Positions 1-9,651 of a DNA stretch of 9,651 bases are shown here, one piece after another. Source of the DNA: a virus (Duplodnaviria; Heunggongvirae; Uroviricota; Caudoviricetes); the IMG/VR virus record IMGVR_UViG_2585427793_000010. One strand, given 5' to 3'. The notes below the pieces were generated by a model. It saw nothing but the letters and a program-made list of their open reading frames with translations. It ran no database searches and was not told the origin of the DNA. How positions within the stretch are numbered: position 1 is the first letter of the stretch; the number at the start of each line of letters is the position of its first letter. The position numbers and the translations under genes are program-made.

Positions 1-1158
1 ATGCTCACCGTTAAGCAGATTGAAGCAGCAAAGCCGAAAGAAAAACCATACCGCCTTCTCGATGGTAATGGCCTGTACCTTTATGTCCCTGTGTCAGGGA
101 AAAAGGTATGGCAGCTTCGCTACAAGATTGACGGTAAGGAGAAAATCCTGACCGTCGGAAAATATCCGCTTATGACTTTGCAGGAGGCAAGGGATAAAGC
201 ATGGACTGCGAGGAAAGACATCTCAGTTGGCATCGATCCTGTAAAGGCGAAAAAGGCTTCGTCTAACAACAATTCCTTTAGTGCGATTTACAAGGAATGG
301 TACGAGCACAAGAAGCAAGTATGGTCAGTAGGGTATGCAACTGAACTTGCCAAAATGTTTGACGACGACATTTTACCTATCATTGGCGGCCTTGAAATTC
401 AGGATATTGAGCCGATGCAACTGCTGGAAGTAATCCGCAGGTTTGAAGATCGCGGTGCAATGGAACGAGCCAACAAAGCACGCAGAAGATGCGGCGAGGT
501 TTTCCGTTACGCTATTGTCACCGGAAGGGCTAAATATAACCCGGCACCTGACCTTGCTGACGCCATGAAGGGATACCGCAAGAAGAACTTCCCGTTTCTT
601 CCTGCAGACCAGATCCCGGCATTCAACAAAGCACTGGCAACATTTTCAGGAAGTATCGTATCGCTCATTGCGACCAAAGTTTTACGCTACACAGCCCTAA
701 GAACGAAAGAGCTTCGTTCCATGCTATGGAAGAACGTCGATTTTGAAAATAGGATTATCACCATCGACGCCAGTGTGATGAAAGGACGCAAAATTCATGT
801 GGTTCCTATGTCAGACCAGGTAGTTGAACTTCTCACTACGCTAAGCTCCATCACCAAACCAGTCTCAGAGTTTGTTTTTGCCGGGCGCAACGATAAGAAG
901 AAGCCAATCTGCGAGAACGCGGTACTGCTTGTGATCAAACAAATCGGCTATGAGGGTCTGGAAAGCGGTCACGGATTCAGGCATGAATTCAGCACGATTA
1001 TGAACGAGCACGAATGGCCTGCTGACGCTATTGAAGTGCAACTGGCACATGCAAACGGCGGATCTGTGCGTGGGATTTACAACCATGCTCAGTATCTCGA
1101 TAAACGCAGAGAAATGATGCAATGGTGGGCGGACTGGCTTGATGAGAAGGGGGAGTGA
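1..1158 (+). CDS. intS: Prophage integrase, P4-type tyrosine recombinase
   Basis: 385-aa ORF. N-terminal arm-binding-like region (MLTVKQIEAAKPKEKPYRLLDGNGLYLYV). C-terminal catalytic signature candidates: R in TALRTKELRS, HxxR in GHGFRHEF, and Y in GIYNHAQYLDKRRE. Confidence 0.95.
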   Translation: MLTVKQIEAAKPKEKPYRLLDGNGLYLYVPVSGKKVWQLRYKIDGKEKILTVGKYPLMTLQEARDKAWTARKDISVGIDPVKAKKASSNNNSFSAIYKEWYEHKKQVWSVGYATELAKMFDDDILPIIGGLEIQDIEPMQLLEVIRRFEDRGAMERANKARRRCGEVFRYAIVTGRAKYNPAPDLADAMKGYRKKNFPFLPADQIPAFNKALATFSGSIVSLIATKVLRYTALRTKELRSMLWKNVDFENRIITIDASVMKGRKIHVVPMSDQVVELLTTLSSITKPVSEFVFAGRNDKKKPICENAVLLVIKQIGYEGLESGHGFRHEFSTIMNEHEWPADAIEVQLAHANGGSVRGIYNHAQYLDKRREMMQWWADWLDEKGE

Positions 1159-1310
1159 GCGACCTTAACAACTATCGAATAGCACAAAGTCTTGCAATCC
1201 AGTGCAAAGCTTTGTGTGTATAAGTTTTGTCTCATCAACCACAGCAAGTATCGATCGATTAAGACTTGGATGATAGACTTCATTCCTTTGATTATTAGCT
1301 GATAGAAGAA
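1159..1310 (+). promoter_or_regulatory. Upstream regulatory region of the gtr operon; promoter not resolved
   Basis: 152-bp intergenic region. Contains inverted repeat TTGCA-N7-TGCAA (1192-1208), a TATAAG -10-like hexamer (1219-1224) and the 10-bp palindrome ATCGATCGAT (1250-1259) carrying the only GATC. No well-spaced -35/-10 pair found by eye. Confidence 0.3.
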
Positions 1311-1673
1311 ATGTTAAAGCTATTTGCAAAGTACACCTCTATTGGTGTGCTGAACACCCTTATACACTGGGTGGTTTTTGGTGTTTGTATCTATGTCGCG
1401 CATACAAACCAAGCTCTTGCAAACTTCGCAGGTTTCGTTGTGGCTGTGAGCTTTAGCTTCTTCGCGAATGCAAAATTCACATTCAAGGCATCGACTACAA
1501 CGATGCGCTACATGCTATATGTTGGGTTCATGGGGACACTGAGTGCTACTGTTGGATGGGCTGCTGATAGATGCGCACTTCCCCCGATGATAACTCTTGT
1601 CACCTTCTCCGCCATCAGCCTGGTGTGCGGTTTCGTCTATTCAAAGTTCATTGTCTTTAGGGATGCGAAATGA
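1311..1673 (+). CDS. gtrA: GtrA-family small membrane protein, bactoprenol-linked glucose flippase
   Basis: 120-aa hydrophobic ORF, first of a gtrA-gtrB-gtr(type) triad; its stop overlaps the next start (ATGA at 1670-1673). Synonym yfdG in K-12. Confidence 0.9.
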
Positions 1674-2590
1674 AGATATCTCTTGTAGTTCCTGTCTTCA
1701 ATGAAGAAGAAGCGATACCAATTTTTTATAAAACGGTACGTGAATTCGAAGAATTGAAGTCATATGAAGTGGAAATCGTTTTCATAAATGACGGCAGCAA
1801 AGACGCTACGGAGTCAATCATTAATGCTCTGGCTGTTTCAGATCCTCTAGTTGTTCCGCTGTCATTTACACGCAACTTTGGTAAAGAACCAGCATTGTTT
1901 GCAGGGTTAGACCATGCAACCGGGGATGCGATAATCCCAATTGATGTTGACCTGCAAGACCCGATTGAGGTTATTCCTCATCTTATTGAAAAATGGCAAG
2001 CAGGTGCTGATATGGTTCTTGCTAAAAGATCTGACCGCTCAACTGATGGACGCCTGAAGCGAAAAACGGCTGAGTGGTTCTATAAGCTCCACAATAAAAT
2101 AAGCAATCCTAAAATTGAAGAGAATGTTGGTGATTTCAGGCTGATGAGCCGTGATGTTGTCGAAAATATTAAACTTATGCCAGAACGAAACCTTTTCATG
2201 AAAGGTATTCTGAGCTGGGTAGGAGGAAAGACAGATATTGTTGAATACGTGCGAGCGGAAAGAATTGCTGGAGATACAAAATTTAATGGATGGAAACTTT
2301 GGAATTTAGCACTTGAGGGTATTACAAGCTTTTCCACATTCCCTCTTCGCATCTGGACATACATAGGGTTAGTGGTAGCCAGTGTAGCATTTATTTATGG
2401 GGCGTGGATGATTTTAGATACTATCATATTTGGAAATGCTGTTAGGGGATATCCTTCACTACTTGTTTCAATACTGTTTTTAGGTGGAATTCAGATGATT
2501 GGAATAGGAGTATTAGGTGAATATATTGGACGCACATACATTGAAACCAAAAAACGCCCGAAATACATCATCAAGAGAGTCAAAAAATGA
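1670..2590 (+). CDS. gtrB: Bactoprenol glucosyltransferase, GT2 family
   Basis: 306-aa ORF. N-terminal GT2 signature ([25 protein letters not shown] as DxD) and C-terminal hydrophobic segments. ATGA overlap with gtrA upstream and with the next gene at 2587-2590. Synonym yfdH. Confidence 0.93.
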
Positions 2591-3918
2591 ATAAAGCAAT
2601 AAAAGTATCATTGTATATATCTTTTGTTTTGATTATTTGCGCCTTATCTAAAAACATAATGATGTTAAATACATCTGATTTCGGAAGAGCCATTAAGCCA
2701 TTAATTGAAGACATACCAGCATTTACATATGACTTACCTTTATTGTATAAATTGAAAGGTCATATTGATTCAATTGATAGCTATGAGTATATAAGTTCAT
2801 ATAGTTATATTTTGTATACATACGTCCTGTTTATTAGCATTTTTACTGAATATCTTGATGCTAGGGTGTTATCGTTATTTCTAAAAGTAATATATATTTA
2901 TTCATTATATGCGATATTTACTTCATATATAAAAACAGAAAGGTATGTAACTTTATTTACATTCTTTATTTTAGCTTTTCTTATGTGTTCTTCATCAACA
3001 CTGTCAATGTTTGCATCATTCTATCAAGAGCAAATAGTTATAATTTTCCTTCCATTTTTGGTGTATTCATTAACATGCAAAAACAATAAATCTATGCTTT
3101 TGCTATTTTTTTCGTTGCTAATAATATCTACTGCTAAAAATCAATTTATATTAACCCCACTAATAGTGTATTCATATTATATTTTTTTTGATAGACACAA
3201 ACTAATTATTAAATCTGTAATATGCGTGGTGTGCTTGCTTGCGTCAATATTTGCAATATCTTATTCAAAAGGTGTTGTTGAATTAAATAAGTACCATGCA
3301 ACATACTTCGGTAGTTATCTTTATATGAAAAACAACGGGTATAAAATGCCATCGTATGTTGATGATAAGTGTGTTGGGTTAGATGCCTGGGGTAATAAAT
3401 TCGACATATCATTTGGCGCAACCCCAACAGAAGTTGGAACGGAATGTTTCGAATCTCATAAAGATGAAACGTTTTCGAATGCACTCTTTTTATTGGTTAG
3501 CAAACCAAGCACCATCTTCAAACTTCCATTTGATGATGGTGTGATGTCTCAGTATAAAGAAAATTATTTCCATGTATATAAAAAACTACACGTAATATAT
3601 GGAGAATCAAACATACTAACGACTATTACTAACATAAAAGACAATATATTTAAAAACATTAGATTTATATCATTGTTATTATTTTTTATTGCTTCTATTT
3701 TTATTAGAAATAATAAAATAAAGGCATCTTTATTTGTAGTATCTCTTTTTGGAATATCTCAATTTTATGTGTCATTTTTCGGGGAAGGATATAGAGATTT
3801 AAGCAAGCATTTATTTGGAATGTATTTTTCGTTCGACCTTTGCTTATACATAACAGTCGTTTTTTTAATTTATAAAATAATTCAAAGAAATCAAGACAAT
3901 AGCGATGTAAAGCACTAA
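2587..3918 (+). CDS. gtrS: Serotype-specific O-antigen glucosyltransferase, polytopic membrane protein
   Basis: 443-aa highly hydrophobic ORF in the third position of the gtr triad. Markedly AT-rich (about 28-30% GC by eye) compared with gtrA and gtrB, typical of horizontally acquired type-specific gtr genes. Synonym yfdI. Confidence 0.85.
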
Positions 3919-3926
3919 GTTTAAAT

Positions 3927-3948
3927 TGCGCGCCAATCATGGCGCGCA
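3927..3948. terminator. GC-rich hairpin between the convergent gtrS and tail-fibre-fragment ORFs; possible bidirectional terminator
   Basis: Perfect 8-bp stem TGCGCGCC / GGCGCGCA with 6-nt loop AATCAT, 9 nt after the gtrS stop and 5 nt beyond the stop of the minus-strand ORF ending at 3953. No strong U-tract on either side, hence low confidence. Confidence 0.3.
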
Positions 3949-3952
3949 CAAG

Positions 3953-4282
3953 CTATAATACCAACCTAATTTCTCCTCCTCTTAGAGTGACTATATCTCC
4001 TGATAGAATTGCGGTATTGACTATCAAATGCCCTGATTCGTTGTTTATTGTAATATCTCCTCTATCTGCAGACGATAACTTAAATGCATCATTGCCCACA
4101 ACAAACCCCCTCCAGAACCAAGTGCTGATATTATCATCAACAGTGATAGATACATATACTAACTGATTATCGTTATAAGTGATTCCTGTCTTATACTTAA
4201 CATAAGGACTTCCACTTTGATTCTCGATAGACACATAACATCCAGGGGTTATGTTTGTATGCGTCCCGCGACTATCGCCCCA
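3953..4282 (-). pseudogene. Tail-fibre-like C-terminal fragment, AT-rich and N-terminally truncated
   Basis: The minus-strand frame is open for about 109 codons (stop on the plus strand at 4283-4285) in about 35% GC DNA, where stop-free runs are improbable. Product is beta-rich and N/G/S/T-rich (…ITINNESGHLIVNTAILSGDIVTLRGGEIRLVL), as in fibre tip domains. GTG start at 4234 has no good RBS. Family assignment is inference. Confidence 0.3.
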
Positions 4283-4561
4283 TTAACGCCATACGATAAA
4301 TGGGATGGTGAGAAATGGGTGACGGATACCGAGGCACAGCATAGCGTCGCAGTAGATGCAGCAGAAGCACAGCGCCAGTCGCTGATTGATACTGCAATGG
4401 CTTCCATTAGTCTGATTCAACTGAAATTACAGGCTGGGCGGAAGCTGATGCAGGCAGAGACCTCCCGACTTAACACTGTGCTGGATTACATTGACGCGGT
4501 GACGGCAACAGATACCAGCACCGCGCCGGATGTCATCTGGCCTGAACTGCCGGAGGAGTAG
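4217..4561 (+). pseudogene. tfaS: Tail fibre assembly protein fragment, N-terminally truncated
   Basis: C-terminal two-thirds of a lambda-Tfa-like protein (…YDKWDGEKWVTDTEA…TDTSTAPDVIWPELPEE). ORF begins at TTG 4217 with an internal ATG at 4259; Tfa-like sequence starts only at about 4262, coinciding with the GC-content breakpoint. Confidence 0.7.
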
Positions 4562-4973
4562 GCCATTCAATATCTGGCGCACTGGAAGTATCGACCAGCT
4601 CCAGTGCGTCCAGATAATCCAGCCACAAATTATATTGCGCCAGTTCCTCACCTTTCAGACGACCAATAGCCGCTTTACCAGCCCATTGTTTACTGTTCAT
4701 ATAATCGTTGGCCTGATTAATCAATTGCTGCTTTTTCAGTTCGGCTGCAGCAATCTGTTCCTCATGTGTTGGTGGTGGAATTTCAGACCATGCAGGAAAA
4801 CCATTTTCTCCAGCGATACGGATTTTTCCTTTCGGCGGTAATCCGGAAAACTCAATATACACTTGCTCATCAACTTCAACAGCATCATCTGGCCATGAGC
4901 CAGCTTGCGTGTAATCCTCTTTCATCTCCAAGGGATAGAAAGAGTTTGTAGTCGCGGAATATATGTAATTCAT
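4533..4973 (-). CDS. yfdK: Tail fibre assembly protein (Tfa family), full length
   Basis: 146-aa ORF with Tfa-type C-terminus (…VDTSSAPDIEWPTPPAVQAR). GGAG RBS 6 nt upstream of the ATG at 4973. Its 3' end overlaps the tfaS 3' end tail-to-tail by 29 bp. Confidence 0.85.
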   Translation of the reverse strand: MNYIYSATTNSFYPLEMKEDYTQAGSWPDDAVEVDEQVYIEFSGLPPKGKIRIAGENGFPAWSEIPPPTHEEQIAAAELKKQQLINQANDYMNSKQWAGKAAIGRLKGEELAQYNLWLDYLDALELVDTSSAPDIEWPTPPAVQAR

Positions 4974-4999
4974 TTTTCACTCCATAAAGTTAAAAGAAA

Positions 5000-5641
5000 T
5001 TAATACCCTAATGCGAAAAATGAAGCACCGATACCGGGTACGCCTGCTCTGGAAATAAATTTCACCGGGTCCTGGTTATAACCGGCACAAGCTATATAGC
5101 CAACATTTGCACTGCCGGGAGTGTAATCCTGAGTCGCAAATACCCGCAGACATCTATTCGGAAATGCAATCGGAAAATAGGTTACTGTGTCCTGAGACGT
5201 CAGCGGAACATCAATTGGCCCCCATTGAATAATTAAACCGGATGGCAATTTTTGATATCCAGGAACTGAAGCAGAAAGCATAAAACTACCCATATCAGGT
5301 ATCTGATTCGCCCCTGTCCCTACATTTCTTTTAGCCGCTTCTCCCAAACCAAGGTTTTCGAGAGCCTTTTGCACCGTGCCGTCCAATTTGATATCGCCAA
5401 ACGGATTCTTGCGGCTTAACAGCAGCGCACGAAGCGCGGTAAGCAGCTGGTCATGCCGCCCCTTCTCCAGGCTGGCACCGGAGGCCTCCACAACGCTGCA
5501 AAGCTCCTCCTGCAACATGTCAAAGTAGTCATCATCCAGATCGGTGGCAGGCGTGCCGGTCTGGGGGTTACCACGGGTAAAACCGTTCTTACCCGCGCCG
5601 AACTTATCCTTCTGCGCGGTTTTCGTGTCTATACGATGCAT
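5000..5641 (-). CDS. yfdL: Tail fibre protein, short or rearranged
   Basis: 213-aa ORF immediately upstream of yfdK on the same strand (fibre then tfa order). The ATG at 5641 is preceded by GGAG with a 6-nt spacer, supporting the long form over the internal Met-42 start (172 aa). Fibre-like C-terminal region (…[19 protein letters not shown]…). Confidence 0.65.
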
Positions 5642-5644
5642 GGA

Positions 5645-5845
5645 TTACTCCGGATATTTAAAAATTACGTAGGTATGCGACGGGCAGAGTTTGTTAAGCA
5701 CACACTCGACAACGGTGTCACCCCAGATACGCAGTGCGGAATCACAGGGATCGCCACATGTCATCCAGGTGGTGTTGGCGGCGGCTGGCATGTTGACCTG
5801 CCAGTAATACCGCCATTCCGGCGCATTCACAGCGTCAGTAGGCAC
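5645..5845 (-). CDS. Hypothetical small protein upstream of and coupled to yfdL; possibly a gene fragment
   Basis: 66-codon ORF with GTG start. Its TAA stop lies 3 nt before the yfdL ATG, and the yfdL RBS (GGAG) sits in its last codons. No recognisable motifs. An in-frame stop lies immediately upstream, so it cannot be longer. Confidence 0.35.
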
Positions 5846-5847
5846 TC

Positions 5848-6144
5848 ATGTTAAAGCAGGTGTATGAAATGAAAGTCCAGATTTTAAACAATAACTGTGA
5901 AGTCGTTTGGTCATACGACATAGCCGCCCCTGTAGATCAGAGCGGCGATAGCTGGACCAATGGGAAACATCAGATTATGGCTGGAGTTGTGTTCTCTTTA
6001 CGCCGTGCTTTGGAACAGGCTGAAGTATTTCCATCAGACCCTGAATGGAAATGGCCTTTTTCTATTTGTCCAAATTCGGAGAGCACATTTCAGAAAATTG
6101 GTCAGAAAGTCGCACTCGAAGAGCATCAGCCAACTGTTTCCTGA
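5848..6144 (+). CDS. Hypothetical ORF; questionable
   Basis: 98 codons from ATG 5848 (alternative ATG at 5869 with AGGTG 9 nt upstream). No long minus-strand frame exists across 5846-6061. Its 3' end overlaps the convergent 81-codon ORF by 83 bp, so at most one of the pair is probably fully genuine. Confidence 0.2.
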   Translation: MLKQVYEMKVQILNNNCEVVWSYDIAAPVDQSGDSWTNGKHQIMAGVVFSLRRALEQAEVFPSDPEWKWPFSICPNSESTFQKIGQKVALEEHQPTVS

Positions 6145-6307
6145 TTTTTTCAGGTAACTCGTCGGCATCGCAGAAACAACAACGCTCGATCATGTTGAAA
6201 GCCGATTCGTAGAACTGTTTCTGCTGAGTGTCGCTGAGACAGGAAAAGAGCGACGTTACGATGATTTTATTAATTGCATTATCAAGTTCTTTTTCATCAA
6301 AAGTCAT
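6062..6307 (-). CDS. Hypothetical 81-aa protein with a Cys cluster, first gene of the leftward unit
   Basis: ATG at 6307 preceded by AAGGAA RBS (6-nt spacer) and an in-frame TAA four codons further upstream, so the ORF is complete. Product MTFDEKELDNAINK…ERCCFCDADELPEK…; no HTH recognisable. Transcribed divergently from the yfdP operon. Confidence 0.5.
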   Translation of the reverse strand: MTFDEKELDNAINKIIVTSLFSCLSDTQQKQFYESAFNMIERCCFCDADELPEKIRKQLADALRVRLSDQFSEMCSPNLDK

Positions 6308-6560
6308 TTGATTTTCCTTTTATGTATACGGGCTTAAAAGGATACCACCGAGCCTGAAGTGGTGAAAAGACAGGCACATAACAGCTAAGTATTTTCAACC
6401 AAAGAGAATCCTTAGCGTTGTGGTGAATGCGGCTCAGCGCACGCGGGTTAAGGTTGAGGCTGACAGTCGACCTTCTGTGGATACCCACCCGTCTGGTGTG
6501 CAACCTTCGCCAGGCACCGGGAGGCACCCGGCACCACAACTTTATGCTGTGTGTAGTCCT

Positions 6561-6607
6561 GGCGGTACCAGTTTGTGCCCTTGCTTCCGGCTGGTACCGT
6601 CCTTTTT
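6561..6607 (+). terminator. Terminator-like hairpin with T5 tract inside the GC-rich intergenic region
   Basis: Arms CGGTACCAG (6563-6571) and CTGGTACCG (6591-6599), extendable to 11 bp with one G-U pair, followed by TCC then TTTTT (6603-6607). The 19-nt loop lowers confidence. Confidence 0.25.
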
Positions 6608-6744
6608 ACAAAACAGAGAAGAGCATCACCGGACGACGGGCTCATAACCCAATCCATCCGGGCGGCTGCCACCGCAGGTGTTCTTCTCTGTTTTGTGGAG
6701 AAACTAATCGGCCTTGCAGCGTCGATATGATGAGGAGCAGCAAA

Positions 6745-7107
6745 ATGGCTAGCGAACGCAGTACTGATGTGCAGGCATTTATCGGGGAGCTGGACGGCGG
6801 CGTATTTGAAACCAAAATCGGCGCAGTTCTCAGTGAAGTCGCTTCCGGTGTGATGAACACGAAAACCAAAGGTAAGGTCTCACTCAACCTGGAAATCGAA
6901 CCATTTGATGAGAACCGTCTGAAAATCAAACACAAACTCTCATATGTTCGCCCGACTAACCGTGGGAAAATTTCCGAAGAAGACACCACCGAAACGCCGA
7001 TGTATGTCAATCGCGGTGGTCGCCTGACTATTCTGCAGGAAGACCAGGGACAATTACTGACTCTTGCCGGTGAGCCTGACGGAAAACTCCGCGCAGCAGG
7101 TCATTAA
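6745..7107 (+). CDS. yfdP: Conserved prophage protein of unknown function, first gene of the rightward operon
   Basis: 120-aa product from ATG 6745, preceded by GAGGAG (6732-6737) with a 7-nt spacer. The 106 in-frame codons upstream (from 6427) are Arg/Cys-rich low-complexity read-through of GC-rich DNA and are judged non-coding. Confidence 0.8.
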   Translation: MASERSTDVQAFIGELDGGVFETKIGAVLSEVASGVMNTKTKGKVSLNLEIEPFDENRLKIKHKLSYVRPTNRGKISEEDTTETPMYVNRGGRLTILQEDQGQLLTLAGEPDGKLRAAGH

Positions 7108-7172
7108 TATCATTCTTAATTAACTAATTATTTATCTCATCACTGAATATCTTAATATAGTGAGGACTTATT

Positions 7173-7997
7173 ATGTCTCAGAACTTAGACGCAACCGCAA
7201 TTAATCAAATCCATGCCCTTATTTCTGCTCAGGGTGTTAATGAAATTATCAGTAAGATTGGTGCCGATGCTGTGGCATTGCCTGAGAATTTCCGCATTCA
7301 TGATCTGGAAAAATTTAATTTAAATCGCTTCCGTTTCCGTGGTGCGCTTTCCACTGCCAGCATCGATGACTTTACCCGTTATTCTAAAGATCTTGCAGAT
7401 GAAGGCACCCGCTGCTTTATCGATGCTGATAATATGCGTGCCGTCAGTGTGCTTAACCTGGGTACTATTGATGAACCAGGTCACGCAGATAACACCGCCA
7501 CTCTCAAACTGAAAAAGACAGCACCGTTCTCTGCCCTGTTGTCTGTTAACGGCGAGCGTAACTCCCAGAAATCACTGGCAGAATGGATTGAAGACTGGGC
7601 CGACTACCTTGTGGGCTTTGATGCTAATGGTGACGCCATTCAGGCAACAAAAGCGGCTGCGGCAATCCGTAAAATCACGATTGAAGCAAACCAGACCGCT
7701 GATTTTGAAGATAATGACTTCAGCGGCAAACGCTCCCTGATGGAATCTGTCGAAGCGAAGACCAAAGACATTATGCCAGTGGCATTTGAATTTAAATGCG
7801 TTCCGTTTGAAGGTCTGAAAGAACGTCCGTTTAAATTACGCCTCAGCATTATCACTGGCGATCGTCCTGTACTGGTTCTGCGCATTATTCAGCTGGAAGC
7901 GGTGCAGGAAGATATGGCTAACGAATTTCGTGATCTGCTTGTTGAGAAATTCAAAGACAGCAAAGTAGAAACCTTTATTGGTACTTTCACCGCCTGA
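7173..7997 (+). CDS. yfdQ: Conserved prophage protein of unknown function; DUF2303-like by recollection
   Basis: 274-aa ORF with GAGGA RBS 6 nt upstream of the ATG. Acidic, soluble-looking protein with no catalytic motif recognisable by eye. Confidence 0.88.
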
Positions 7998-8009
7998 TTT
8001 CATTACTGC

Positions 8010-8031
8010 AAATGCCCCTGCGGGGGCATTT
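8010..8031 (+). terminator. Intrinsic terminator-like hairpin between yfdQ and yfdR
   Basis: AAATGCCCC-tgcg-GGGGCATTT: 9-bp stem with GC-rich core, 4-nt loop and A-tract/U-tract arms, followed by AU, 13 nt after the yfdQ stop. Short U-run, so probably partial or bidirectional. Confidence 0.45.
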
Positions 8032-8124
8032 ATGGAAACGTAATTAACTCAATAATCACCGGATGGTGAGGGCTTCCTTTTACCCAAACTCAGCGCGGTG
8101 CAGCGCATATACGTGGAGAACAAA

Positions 8125-8661
8125 ATGTCATTTATTAAAACTTTTTCCGGGAAGCATTTTTATTATGACAAGATAAATAAAGACGACATCGTGATTAACG
8201 ATATCGCGGTTTCCCTTTCAAATATCTGCCGCTTTGCCGGTCATCTTTCTCACTTCTACAGTGTCGCCCAACATGCGGTGCTTTGCAGCCAGCTGGTGCC
8301 GCAGGAATTTGCTTTTGAAGCATTAATGCATGATGCAACAGAAGCGTATTGCCAGGACATCCCCGCACCACTGAAACGCCTTCTTCCTGACTATAAACGG
8401 ATGGAAGAAAAAATAGATGCAGTAATCCGTGAGAAATACGGGTTACCTCCTGTTATGAGCACGCCAGTGAAATATGCCGATCTCATTATGCTGGCAACCG
8501 AACGCCGTGATCTCGGGCTTGATGATGGCTCTTTCTGGCCTGTACTGGAAGGCATCCCGGCAACAGAGATGTTCAACGTGATTCCACTGGCACCGGGTCA
8601 TGCCTACGGGATGTTTATGGAACGTTTTAACGATTTATCGGAGTTACGCAAATGCGCATGA
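8125..8661 (+). CDS. yfdR: HD-domain phosphohydrolase, YfbR-like 5'-deoxynucleotidase family
   Basis: 178-aa product from ATG 8125 (GGAG RBS, 6-nt spacer); the track ORF starts at an upstream GTG 8098. HD signature visible: H in SVAQHAV, HD in ALMHDATEAYCQDIP, downstream Asp in ADLIMLATERRDLG. Confidence 0.88.
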   Translation: MSFIKTFSGKHFYYDKINKDDIVINDIAVSLSNICRFAGHLSHFYSVAQHAVLCSQLVPQEFAFEALMHDATEAYCQDIPAPLKRLLPDYKRMEEKIDAVIREKYGLPPVMSTPVKYADLIMLATERRDLGLDDGSFWPVLEGIPATEMFNVIPLAPGHAYGMFMERFNDLSELRKCA

Positions 8662-9014
8662 ATGTTTTCGAAATGGAAGGGTTTCTTCGCGGGAAATGTG
8701 TACCGCGAGATCTGAAAGTGAACGAAACAAATGCTGAGTACCTGGTACGTAAATTCGACGCGCTTGAAGCTAAATGTGCGGCACTGGAAAACAAAATAAT
8801 ACCAGTGTCAGCTGAACTGCCACCAGCAAATGAAAGTGTTCTGTTATTTGATGCTAACGGAGAAGGCTGGCTGATTGGCTGGCGTTCTCTCTGGTACACC
8901 TGGGGACAAAAAGAAACCGGAGAATGGCAGTGGACATTTCAGGTTGGGGACCTTGAAAACGTCAATATCACTCACTGGGCAGTAATGCCAAAAGCACCGG
9001 AGGCTGGAGCATAA
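8652..9014 (+). CDS. yfdS: Conserved prophage protein of unknown function, Trp-rich C-terminus
   Basis: 120-aa ORF. Start overlaps the yfdR stop (ATG 8652, alternative ATG 8658 forming ATGA), with GGAG at 8640-8643, indicating translational coupling. Confidence 0.85.
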   Translation: MRMNVFEMEGFLRGKCVPRDLKVNETNAEYLVRKFDALEAKCAALENKIIPVSAELPPANESVLLFDANGEGWLIGWRSLWYTWGQKETGEWQWTFQVGDLENVNITHWAVMPKAPEAGA

Positions 9015-9319
9015 TGACCACATTTACCAATAAAGAACTGATTAAAGAAATCAAAGAACGAATCAGCAGCCTAGAGGTTCGAGACGATATTGAGCGCCGT
9101 GCTTATGAAATCGCACTCGTATCTCTGGAAGTAGAGCCAGATGAACGCGAAGCCTATGAATTATTCATGGAAAAGCGTTTCGGTGACTTAGTAGATCGTC
9201 GGAGAGCAAAAAACGGCGATAACGAATACATGGCATGGGATATGACTCTCGGTTGGATCATCTGGCAGCAACGAGCTGGTATCCATTTTTCAACAATGTC
9301 ACAACAAGAGGTGAAATAA
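9014..9319 (+). CDS. yfdT: Conserved prophage protein of unknown function
   Basis: 101-aa ORF. TAATG stop-start overlap with yfdS and GGAG RBS with 5-nt spacer. Confidence 0.85.
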   Translation: MTTFTNKELIKEIKERISSLEVRDDIERRAYEIALVSLEVEPDEREAYELFMEKRFGDLVDRRRAKNGDNEYMAWDMTLGWIIWQQRAGIHFSTMSQQEVK

Positions 9320-9375
9320 TAGAGCCATACAGCCTCACACTCGATGAGGCCTGTCAGTTTCTTAAAATATCCTGA
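9235..9375 (+). pseudogene. ypdJ: Excisionase/AlpA-like HTH fragment, truncated
   Basis: 46-codon ORF overlapping the yfdT 3' end in another frame. Only the segment after the yfdT stop (9322-9372, EPYSLTLDEACQFLKIS) looks protein-like and resembles the start of an Xis/AlpA helix-turn-helix; it stops before the recognition helix. Confidence 0.45.
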
Positions 9376-9415
9376 TCTACCATCGCCGTCATAGAGCGTA
9401 TTTTTATTACCTGAT

Positions 9416-9431
9416 TTGCAGGTTCGATTCC
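9416..9431 (+). other. tRNA T-arm-like 16-mer (TTGCAGGTTCGATTCC), isolated fragment
   Basis: Contains the canonical T-loop motif GGTTCGATTCC but no complementary 3' T-stem, acceptor or anticodon arm nearby. Lies between the excisionase fragment and torI. From memory it matches the T-arm of tRNA-Arg (argW); unverified. Confidence 0.4.
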
Positions 9432-9450
9432 CTATTCGGAGATAGCACTC

Positions 9451-9651
9451 ATGCAACACGAACTACAGCCTGATTCACTGGTTGATTTGAAATTCATCAT
9501 GGCTGATACTGGCTTTGGTAAAACCTTCATCTATGACCGGATTAAGTCAGGCGACCTGCCAAAAGCCAAAGTTATCCACGGGCGAGCAAGATGGTTATAT
9601 CGTGACCATTGTGAATTCAAAAATAAGCTCTTAAGCCGCGCCAATGGGTAA
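9451..9651 (+). CDS. torI: Excisionase (recombination directionality factor) and TorR response-regulator inhibitor
   Basis: 66-aa ORF recognised as TorI (MQHELQPDSLVDLKFIMADTGFGKTFIYDRIKSGDLPKAKVIHGRARW…). GGAGA RBS 8 nt upstream. Winged-helix Xis-like pattern. Confidence 0.93.
   Translation: MQHELQPDSLVDLKFIMADTGFGKTFIYDRIKSGDLPKAKVIHGRARWLYRDHCEFKNKLLSRANG

Follow-up and report, generated by a model that had tools for sequence, protein, structure and literature searches.

Noguchi and Katayama (2016, PMC4776307) describe YfdR of E. coli K-12, a product of the cryptic prophage CPS-53 (KpLE1), as structurally homologous to YfbR, with an HD domain. YfbR (PDB 2paq, 2par, 2pau; PF12917; NF003009) and YfdR have the HD core in common, and both contain the motif HDA(S/T)E....D(L/I)P.P.K. 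The affinities of YfdR for nucleotides are given as much below those of YfbR, with reference to Zimmerman 2008 (PMC4776307), and a metabolic-engineering paper, again citing Zimmerman 2008, refers to YfdR as a CMP phosphatase (PMC10870394). Deletion of yfdR gave no gain in CMP yield in the latter work (PMC10870394). Furthermore, a nitric-oxide transcriptome paper places yfdR among regulated prophage genes.

Three other systems are close enough to be instructive. Atu1052, a chromosomal protein of the alphaproteobacterium Agrobacterium tumefaciens that is represented by a structural-genomics entry (PDB 2gz4), is 26-27% identical to YfdR and has a longer insert than YfdR separating the first His from the HD doublet; no paper on Atu1052 was found in the literature. 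DatZ of cyanophage S-2L (PDB 6zpa) is a dATP triphosphohydrolase, which removes the triphosphate and partners PurZ for Z-DNA. Finally, orf30 of phage SfV and sb35 of phage ST64B encode proteins that are 97% and 67% identical to YfdR, respectively, and lie in the same early-left position as yfdR. SfV and ST64B are complete, functional temperate phages, whereas the CPS-53 element is without structural, lysis, replication and immunity genes.

Identity and boundaries of the gene

The DNA analyzed here is a stretch of 9,651 nucleotides (the window), in which the gene at 8125-8661 is the known gene yfdR of CPS-53. E. coli K-12 yfdR (b2361) is 100% identical to it and agrees in sequence, coordinates and neighbors (yfdP, yfdQ, yfdS, yfdT and torI), and the RefSeq CDS at this interval is yfdR, with the product name "5'-deoxynucleotidase" (WP_000008183.1). 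The gene is already named, annotated and partly characterized biochemically, and the binding of its product to DnaA has been published. No purZ or other Z-genome genes were present among the ORFs or annotations of the window, and an Rfam search of the whole window gave no matches.

From 7000 to 9651 (2.65 kb), the window matches E. coli K-12 strains at 100% identity. When compared with MG1655/K-12, the window matches at 99.95% over positions 1-5579 and at 100% over 6726-9651, while 5580-6725 consists of 1146 bp in place of the 1461-bp yfdM'-yfdN-yfdO' of MG1655; this replaced segment rules out that the window is plain MG1655. Within it, a ymfQ/tail-fibre fragment with 100% identity to other prophages abuts an SfV orf33-like gene (5848-6144), the junction falling near 5836-5847, and positions 5300-7000 were found in one piece in none of 5426 complete E. 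coli genomes.

The yfdR reading frame extends from an ATG at 8125 to a TGA at 8659-8661 and comprises 178 codons. A mechanical list of ORFs traces the frame back to a GTG at 8098, which was rejected as the start in view of the GGAG preceding the ATG and the conserved MSFI N-termini of the homologues. Because the homologues begin at MSFI and RefSeq annotates exactly 8125-8661, the ATG at 8125 is taken to be the true start. A promoter scan upstream of yfdR found no promoter-like site on the + strand. Coordinates of yfdR, its predicted active-site codons and its neighbors are collected in Table 1.

Table 1. Positions in the window of yfdR, of codons discussed in the text and of neighboring features.
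Feature	Position	Strand	Basis or remark
yfdP, first of the co-oriented genes in the early-left block	6745..7107	+	RefSeq, phrog_204, SfV orf32
yfdQ (DUF2303), upstream neighbor of yfdR	7173..7997	+	PF10065 (E 4e-93), SfV orf31
9-bp G+C-rich hairpin, AAAUGCCCC-UGCG-GGGGCAUUU, in the yfdQ-yfdR gap	8010..8031	+	MFE -17.3 kcal/mol, z -3.2
Shine-Dalgarno GGAG	8115..8118	+	6 nt before the yfdR ATG at 8125; read from the sequence
yfdR CDS, 178 aa, HD-domain nucleoside 5'-monophosphate phosphohydrolase, YfdR/Atu1052 type	8125..8661	+	RefSeq annotation
R36-F37 codons, equivalent to R18 (phosphate binding) and W19 (reported 2'-deoxy selectivity) in YfbR	8230..8235	+	hhalign, conservation
H50 codon, predicted first metal ligand (SVAQH)	8272..8274	+	Conservation 80/80; alignment with YfbR H33 and Lin2634 H34
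H69-D70 codons, HD doublet	8329..8334	+	BLASTP, hmmsearch and hhalign on YfbR H68-D69
E73-D78 codons (EAYCQD), equivalent to E72 and D77 in YfbR and to E70 and D75 in DatZ	8341..8358	+	Alignments
K116-Y-A-D119 codons (VKYAD), D119 being the predicted fourth metal ligand	8470..8481	+	hhalign, conservation, Atu1052 IKKAD
D129 codon (end of ATERRD), out of register with the ligand	8509..8511	+	Kept in 63/80; Glu in Atu1052
yfdS (DUF551), start overlapping the yfdR stop by 10 nt	8652..9014	+	SfV orf29
yfdT, ATG overlapping the yfdS TGA (ATGA)	9014..9319	+	RefSeq, SfV orf28
torI, excisionase-like, last gene of the block	9451..9651	+	RefSeq; SfV xis at the same position

Family, fold and predicted active site

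The preliminary description of this gene had proposed a prophage-encoded HD-domain nucleotidase closest to YfbR. The first half of that proposal is borne out by the phrog_318 profile ('deoxyribonucleoside 5' monophosphate phosphatase'), which matched YfdR over its full length (residues 1-178; E 1.5e-109), and by the aligned conserved residues, which make up a full metal and catalytic set. The likeness to YfbR extends to the HD core and catalytic residues and stops short of orthology: YfdR scored below the cut-offs of both PF12917 (YfbR-like; 24.3 bits against a gathering score of 25.9, over residues 41-104 only) and the NF003009 YfbR equivalog model (19.9 bits against a cut-off of 122). As regards DatZ, the profile phrog_7076 gave only a weak partial match (E 1e-4, residues 54-121). 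YfdR is, accordingly, a single-domain phosphohydrolase of the HD superfamily, belonging to the YfdR/Atu1052 subfamily (phrog_318), and is an Atu1052-type enzyme and not a YfbR orthologue, despite the shared RefSeq product name.

When 1.84 billion cluster representatives were scanned exhaustively with HMMER, 22,724 relatives of YfdR were found at E <= 1e-3 and 15,283 at E <= 1e-10, a family match far beyond chance. Although the family contains more than 22,000 sequence clusters, no Pfam model scored above threshold in the copy of Pfam that was searched, and the precomputed Pfam domains are '-' for nearly all of the relatives listed. Five database members of 350-410 aa (P0122, P0127, P0129, P0139 and P0146) contain two matched stretches and are tandem double HD domains; Caulobacter phage CcrPW likewise encodes a 396-aa double-HD form (L007 4614-5804).

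The AF2 model of YfdR (pLDDT 97.7) has the all-helical HD fold and matches the solved structure of Atu1052 (2gz4) over its full length, while full-length structural equivalence with YfbR was not found. Several features set YfdR apart from YfbR: an N-terminal beta-hairpin, a much shorter hairpin linking the first His to the HD doublet (H50 to H69, 19 residues, as opposed to 35 from H33 to H68 of YfbR), a Phe at the position of YfbR Trp19 and a different C-terminal third. YfdR is also without the large dNTPase architecture, including the allosteric and oligomerization regions, of dGTPase/SAMHD1-like enzymes, and its fold is distant from those of dNTPase defence enzymes.

Conservation of individual residues was counted in an alignment of 80 full-length YfdR relatives with 39-73% identity. 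H50 and E126 are kept in all 80 sequences, R36, H69 and D70 in 79, E73, D78 and D119 in 78 and K116 in 72, and D129 is kept in only 63. Correspondence with YfbR, for which the reference sequence used is identical to PDB 2paq, was established in several ways. BLASTP and hmmsearch both placed H69-D70-x-x-E73-x-x-x-x-D78 of YfdR on H68-D69-x-x-E72-x-x-x-x-D77 of YfbR. Plain addition of YfbR by MAFFT aligned only the HD core, misplaced the first His and last Asp and was left unused, and comparison of the family with YfbR alone by hhalign likewise recovered the core only, skipping H50; it was replaced by a profile-profile alignment. The comparison profile for this step was a four-member alignment of YfbR, OxsA, Lin2634 and HDDC2 taken from PDB search output, with which the YfdR family aligned over 137 columns at a probability of 96.3% (E 1.6e-9). 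In this alignment, ICRF (R36, F37) falls on INRW (R18, W19), SVAQH50 on NVSEH33 and VKYAD119 on VKQAD137, so that R36, H50, H69, D70, E73, D78 and D119 of YfdR correspond to R18, H33, H68, D69, E72, D77 and D137 of YfbR; H50 was also aligned with H34 of Lin2634.

These results revise one part of the signature that had been read from the gene. All three strings on which the H…HD…D arrangement was based occur in YfdR (SVAQHAV at residues 46-52, LMHDATEAYCQDIP at 67-80 and ATERRD at 124-129), and alignment to YfbR and other HD phosphohydrolases placed H50, H69-D70, E73 and D78 in register. The final Asp is a different one, as D129 of ATERRD sits 10 residues beyond the position aligned with YfbR D137, which is occupied by D119 of VKYAD; Atu1052 has IKKAD at the D119 position and Glu at that of D129. 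As judged from the alignments, the H...HD...D signature of YfdR is intact and in register with known ligands of the HD superfamily, its predicted metal ligands being H50, H69, D70 and D119, and D129 is predicted not to be a ligand.

The metal ligands of S-2L DatZ are H34, H66, D67 and D119, with K116, E70 and D75 used nearby, E70 and D75 serving the second metal site and contact with the sugar 3'-OH (PMC8065100). Homology with YfbR and DatZ, whose structures include bound substrate, suggests that H50, H69, D70 and D119 of YfdR would bind one divalent metal, that E73 and D78 would form a second metal and sugar-binding site, and that the 5'-phosphate would be held by R36 and K116. A metal-activated water would then attack and remove the phosphate of a nucleoside 5'-monophosphate. 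Position 37 of the YfdR relatives is Phe in 73/80, Tyr in 7/80 and never Trp. Residue roles for E72 and D77 of YfbR were taken partly from the abstract of Zimmerman's 2008 study, in which Trp19 is reportedly the proposed selector of 2'-deoxy substrates and YfdR is said to be described as "another 5'-nucleotidase in E. coli" that supports this assignment of Trp19 as the deoxyribose selector. The presence of F37 in YfdR in place of YfbR W19 fits a looser preference for deoxyribo- versus ribonucleotides.

Prophage context, preservation and decay

The five genes yfdP, yfdQ, yfdR, yfdS and yfdT, followed by xis, are the early-left block of a lambdoid, SfV-like temperate phage. Over 3.5 kb (5836-9375), the window is collinear with SfV at 97.5% identity, from orf33 through orf32-orf28 (yfdP, Q, R, S, T) and into xis, and in SfV this block spans the interval from the cI repressor gene to xis/int. 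The same placement of yfdR, downstream of a repressor gene and upstream of xis/int, recurs in ST64B and in E. coli prophages at other attachment sites. The 10-nt overlap of yfdR with yfdS and the ATGA shared by yfdS and yfdT suggest that these genes are probably translated as a unit. The ORF containing yfdP begins 318 nt before the start annotated at 6745 (6427-7107; 226 aa, compared with 120 aa), and the extension had no Pfam match.

In spite of this arrangement, yfdR is not tied to its K-12 neighbors. In strain elppa10 (L004 4582-6537), yfdP and yfdQ are absent and no gene is annotated between the ymfK repressor gene and yfdR. In strain 357900 (L006 6528-7406), a phosphoadenosine-phosphosulfate-reductase family gene takes the place of yfdS and has the same overlap with the yfdR stop. 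Homology of the elppa10 prophage with the window ends at 6713 and restarts at 8014, inside the hairpin of the yfdQ-yfdR gap; yfdP-yfdQ therefore behaves as a cassette, of which the hairpin is the right boundary. This hairpin begins 13 nt past the yfdQ stop, and none of 200 shuffled sequences folded as well (0/200). It has no proper T-tract, and a terminator scan made no call at 8010-8031; it is possibly a weak terminator or RNA stabilizer, in addition to a mosaic boundary.

Relatives of YfdR are found in 324 phage records, including SfV orf30 (97%), ST64B sb35 and Stx phages, and extend to lytic and jumbo phages of Caulobacter, Bacillus, Stenotrophomonas, Pseudomonas and Vibrio. The range of the family takes in phages of Proteobacteria, Firmicutes and Bacteroidota, and yfdR itself is carried by 2971 of 5426 complete E. 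coli genomes (55%), with up to four copies per genome. The homologue of Bacillus phage Tsamsa is surrounded by genes for dihydrofolate reductase, thymidine kinase and DNA polymerase. In lytic phages, however, only some neighborhoods involve nucleotide metabolism, and the neighbors in two further large phages are mostly unnamed or hypothetical early genes.

This distribution bears on the proposal, made in the preliminary description, that yfdR could act in defence of the lysogen, either lowering the supply of dNMPs or dNTPs or acting on modified or damaged nucleotides, so as to keep incoming phage from replicating. Known defence enzymes include HD-domain dNTPases of the dGTPase and SAMHD1 types, yfdR is intact and under purifying selection, and its frequency in complete E. 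coli genomes would suit such a role. Nevertheless, a search of YfdQ, YfdR, YfdS and YfdT against the 5027 defence models of PADLOC found no match at E <= 0.01, and yfdR occupies a repressor-controlled early-left block next to xis/int and not a moron position expressed in the lysogen. Strictly lytic phages carry the family as well, and a monophosphatase of weak affinity would be a poor device for depletion. Deletion of yfdQRST left replication initiation and hydroxyurea resistance unaffected (PMC4776307). A published test of yfdR for phage resistance was not found in the literature. We take the position of yfdR and its presence in lytic phages to indicate a phage-side function; as a widespread early phage gene, yfdR is extremely unlikely to serve in defence.

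The preliminary description had also taken the intactness of the motif, in what it called a largely degraded element, as a sign of selection. The element is indeed largely degraded in comparison with SfV, having lost its structural, lysis and replication genes together with the immunity region and its promoter. For selection, the evidence is divided. Across five alleles (K-12, SfV and three other prophage alleles), dN/dS of yfdR was 0.05-0.12 and dS 0.08-0.27 (Nei-Gojobori), so that purifying selection acts on the protein among phages and prophages. However, because the whole block at 5836-9375 is equally preserved, the intactness of yfdR is not special and is uninformative about selection inside the cryptic element. 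Furthermore, decayed alleles occur in other E. coli strains, two of them frameshifted near residues 145 and 132 (P0018 and P0027) and one fused to IS-derived sequence after residue 125 (P0077), which indicates that yfdR can be lost without obvious harm. Database entries of 126 and 131 aa were not counted as decay, as their sources label them 'partial' and they are probably contig ends.

It is quite possible, if short of probable, that yfdR is a neutral remnant, intact in this element only because the prophage decayed recently and by large deletions, and neither expressed nor used by the host. The ORFs from yfdP to yfdT and torI are all open within a block that is collinear throughout with SfV, the immunity region and promoter have been deleted, the upstream + strand is without a promoter-like site, the yfdQRST deletion was without consequence for initiation and hydroxyurea resistance, and disrupted alleles exist elsewhere. 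The disrupted alleles are, however, a small minority of the database members, and CPS-53, yfdQ and yfdS are reported to aid tolerance of peroxide, acid and MMS, in work cited in PMC4776307. The neutral-remnant account addresses only the present use of the gene and does not conflict with the protein identity given above.

Function of YfdR and its alternatives

We consider it highly probable that yfdR is the known HD nucleotidase gene of CPS-53, with an early function in phage replication, and that it persists as a well-preserved passenger in a degraded prophage. YfdR would act in phage replication by reshaping nucleotide pools, or by binding domain I of DnaA and damping host initiation. The genomic context points to an early phage function, which would lie idle in the degraded CPS-53.

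The second of these activities has been proposed in its own right, and protein binding could be the selected function of YfdR, the HD site being secondary or a nucleotide sensor. Under such a model, YfdR together with YfdQ and YfdS or YfdT would bind DnaA domain I at Phe46, compete with DiaA and DnaB and, under stress or while a phage develops, block host chromosome initiation. In pull-downs, purified YfdR binds DnaA, with DnaA Phe46 being important for the interaction, competition with DiaA and DnaB was observed, and initiation was inhibited both in vivo and in vitro by multicopy yfdQRST, with multicopy yfdQRS or yfdQRT inhibiting initiation at oriC (PMC4776307; reviewed in PMC5448010). The low reported nucleotide affinities of YfdR and its position in an early operon, typical of phage host-takeover genes, agree with this model. 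On the other hand, the residues that are invariant in the family are the catalytic ones, while DnaA domain I varies among hosts, and some prophages have yfdR but no yfdP-yfdQ, while others carry a PAPS-reductase-family gene where yfdS would be. In addition, the effects required overexpression, and a possible artefact thereof was conceded by the authors (Noguchi and Katayama, 2016, PMC4776307). We regard protein binding as an unlikely basis for the selection on YfdR, bearing in mind that DnaA binding and catalysis are not mutually exclusive.

Given affinities as low as those reported, YfdR may have a natural substrate other than canonical (d)NMPs. The true substrate might be something that phages must remove early, for instance a nucleotide that is modified, terminates chains or is produced by host immunity. 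This idea arises because (d)NMPs are reportedly poor substrates, yet the catalytic residues are near-invariant across a huge early-region family. We consider it very doubtful; if true, the YfdR family would be a counter-defence enzyme and not a pool-balancing one.

Under the favored interpretation, namely an early phage nucleotidase carried along in a decaying prophage, yfdR matters little as a discovery, since the gene is already known and is of an ordinary phage nucleotidase type. The interest that remains lies with the family as a whole, which comprises more than 20,000 sequence clusters, and in particular with its physiological substrate and its role in phage development.
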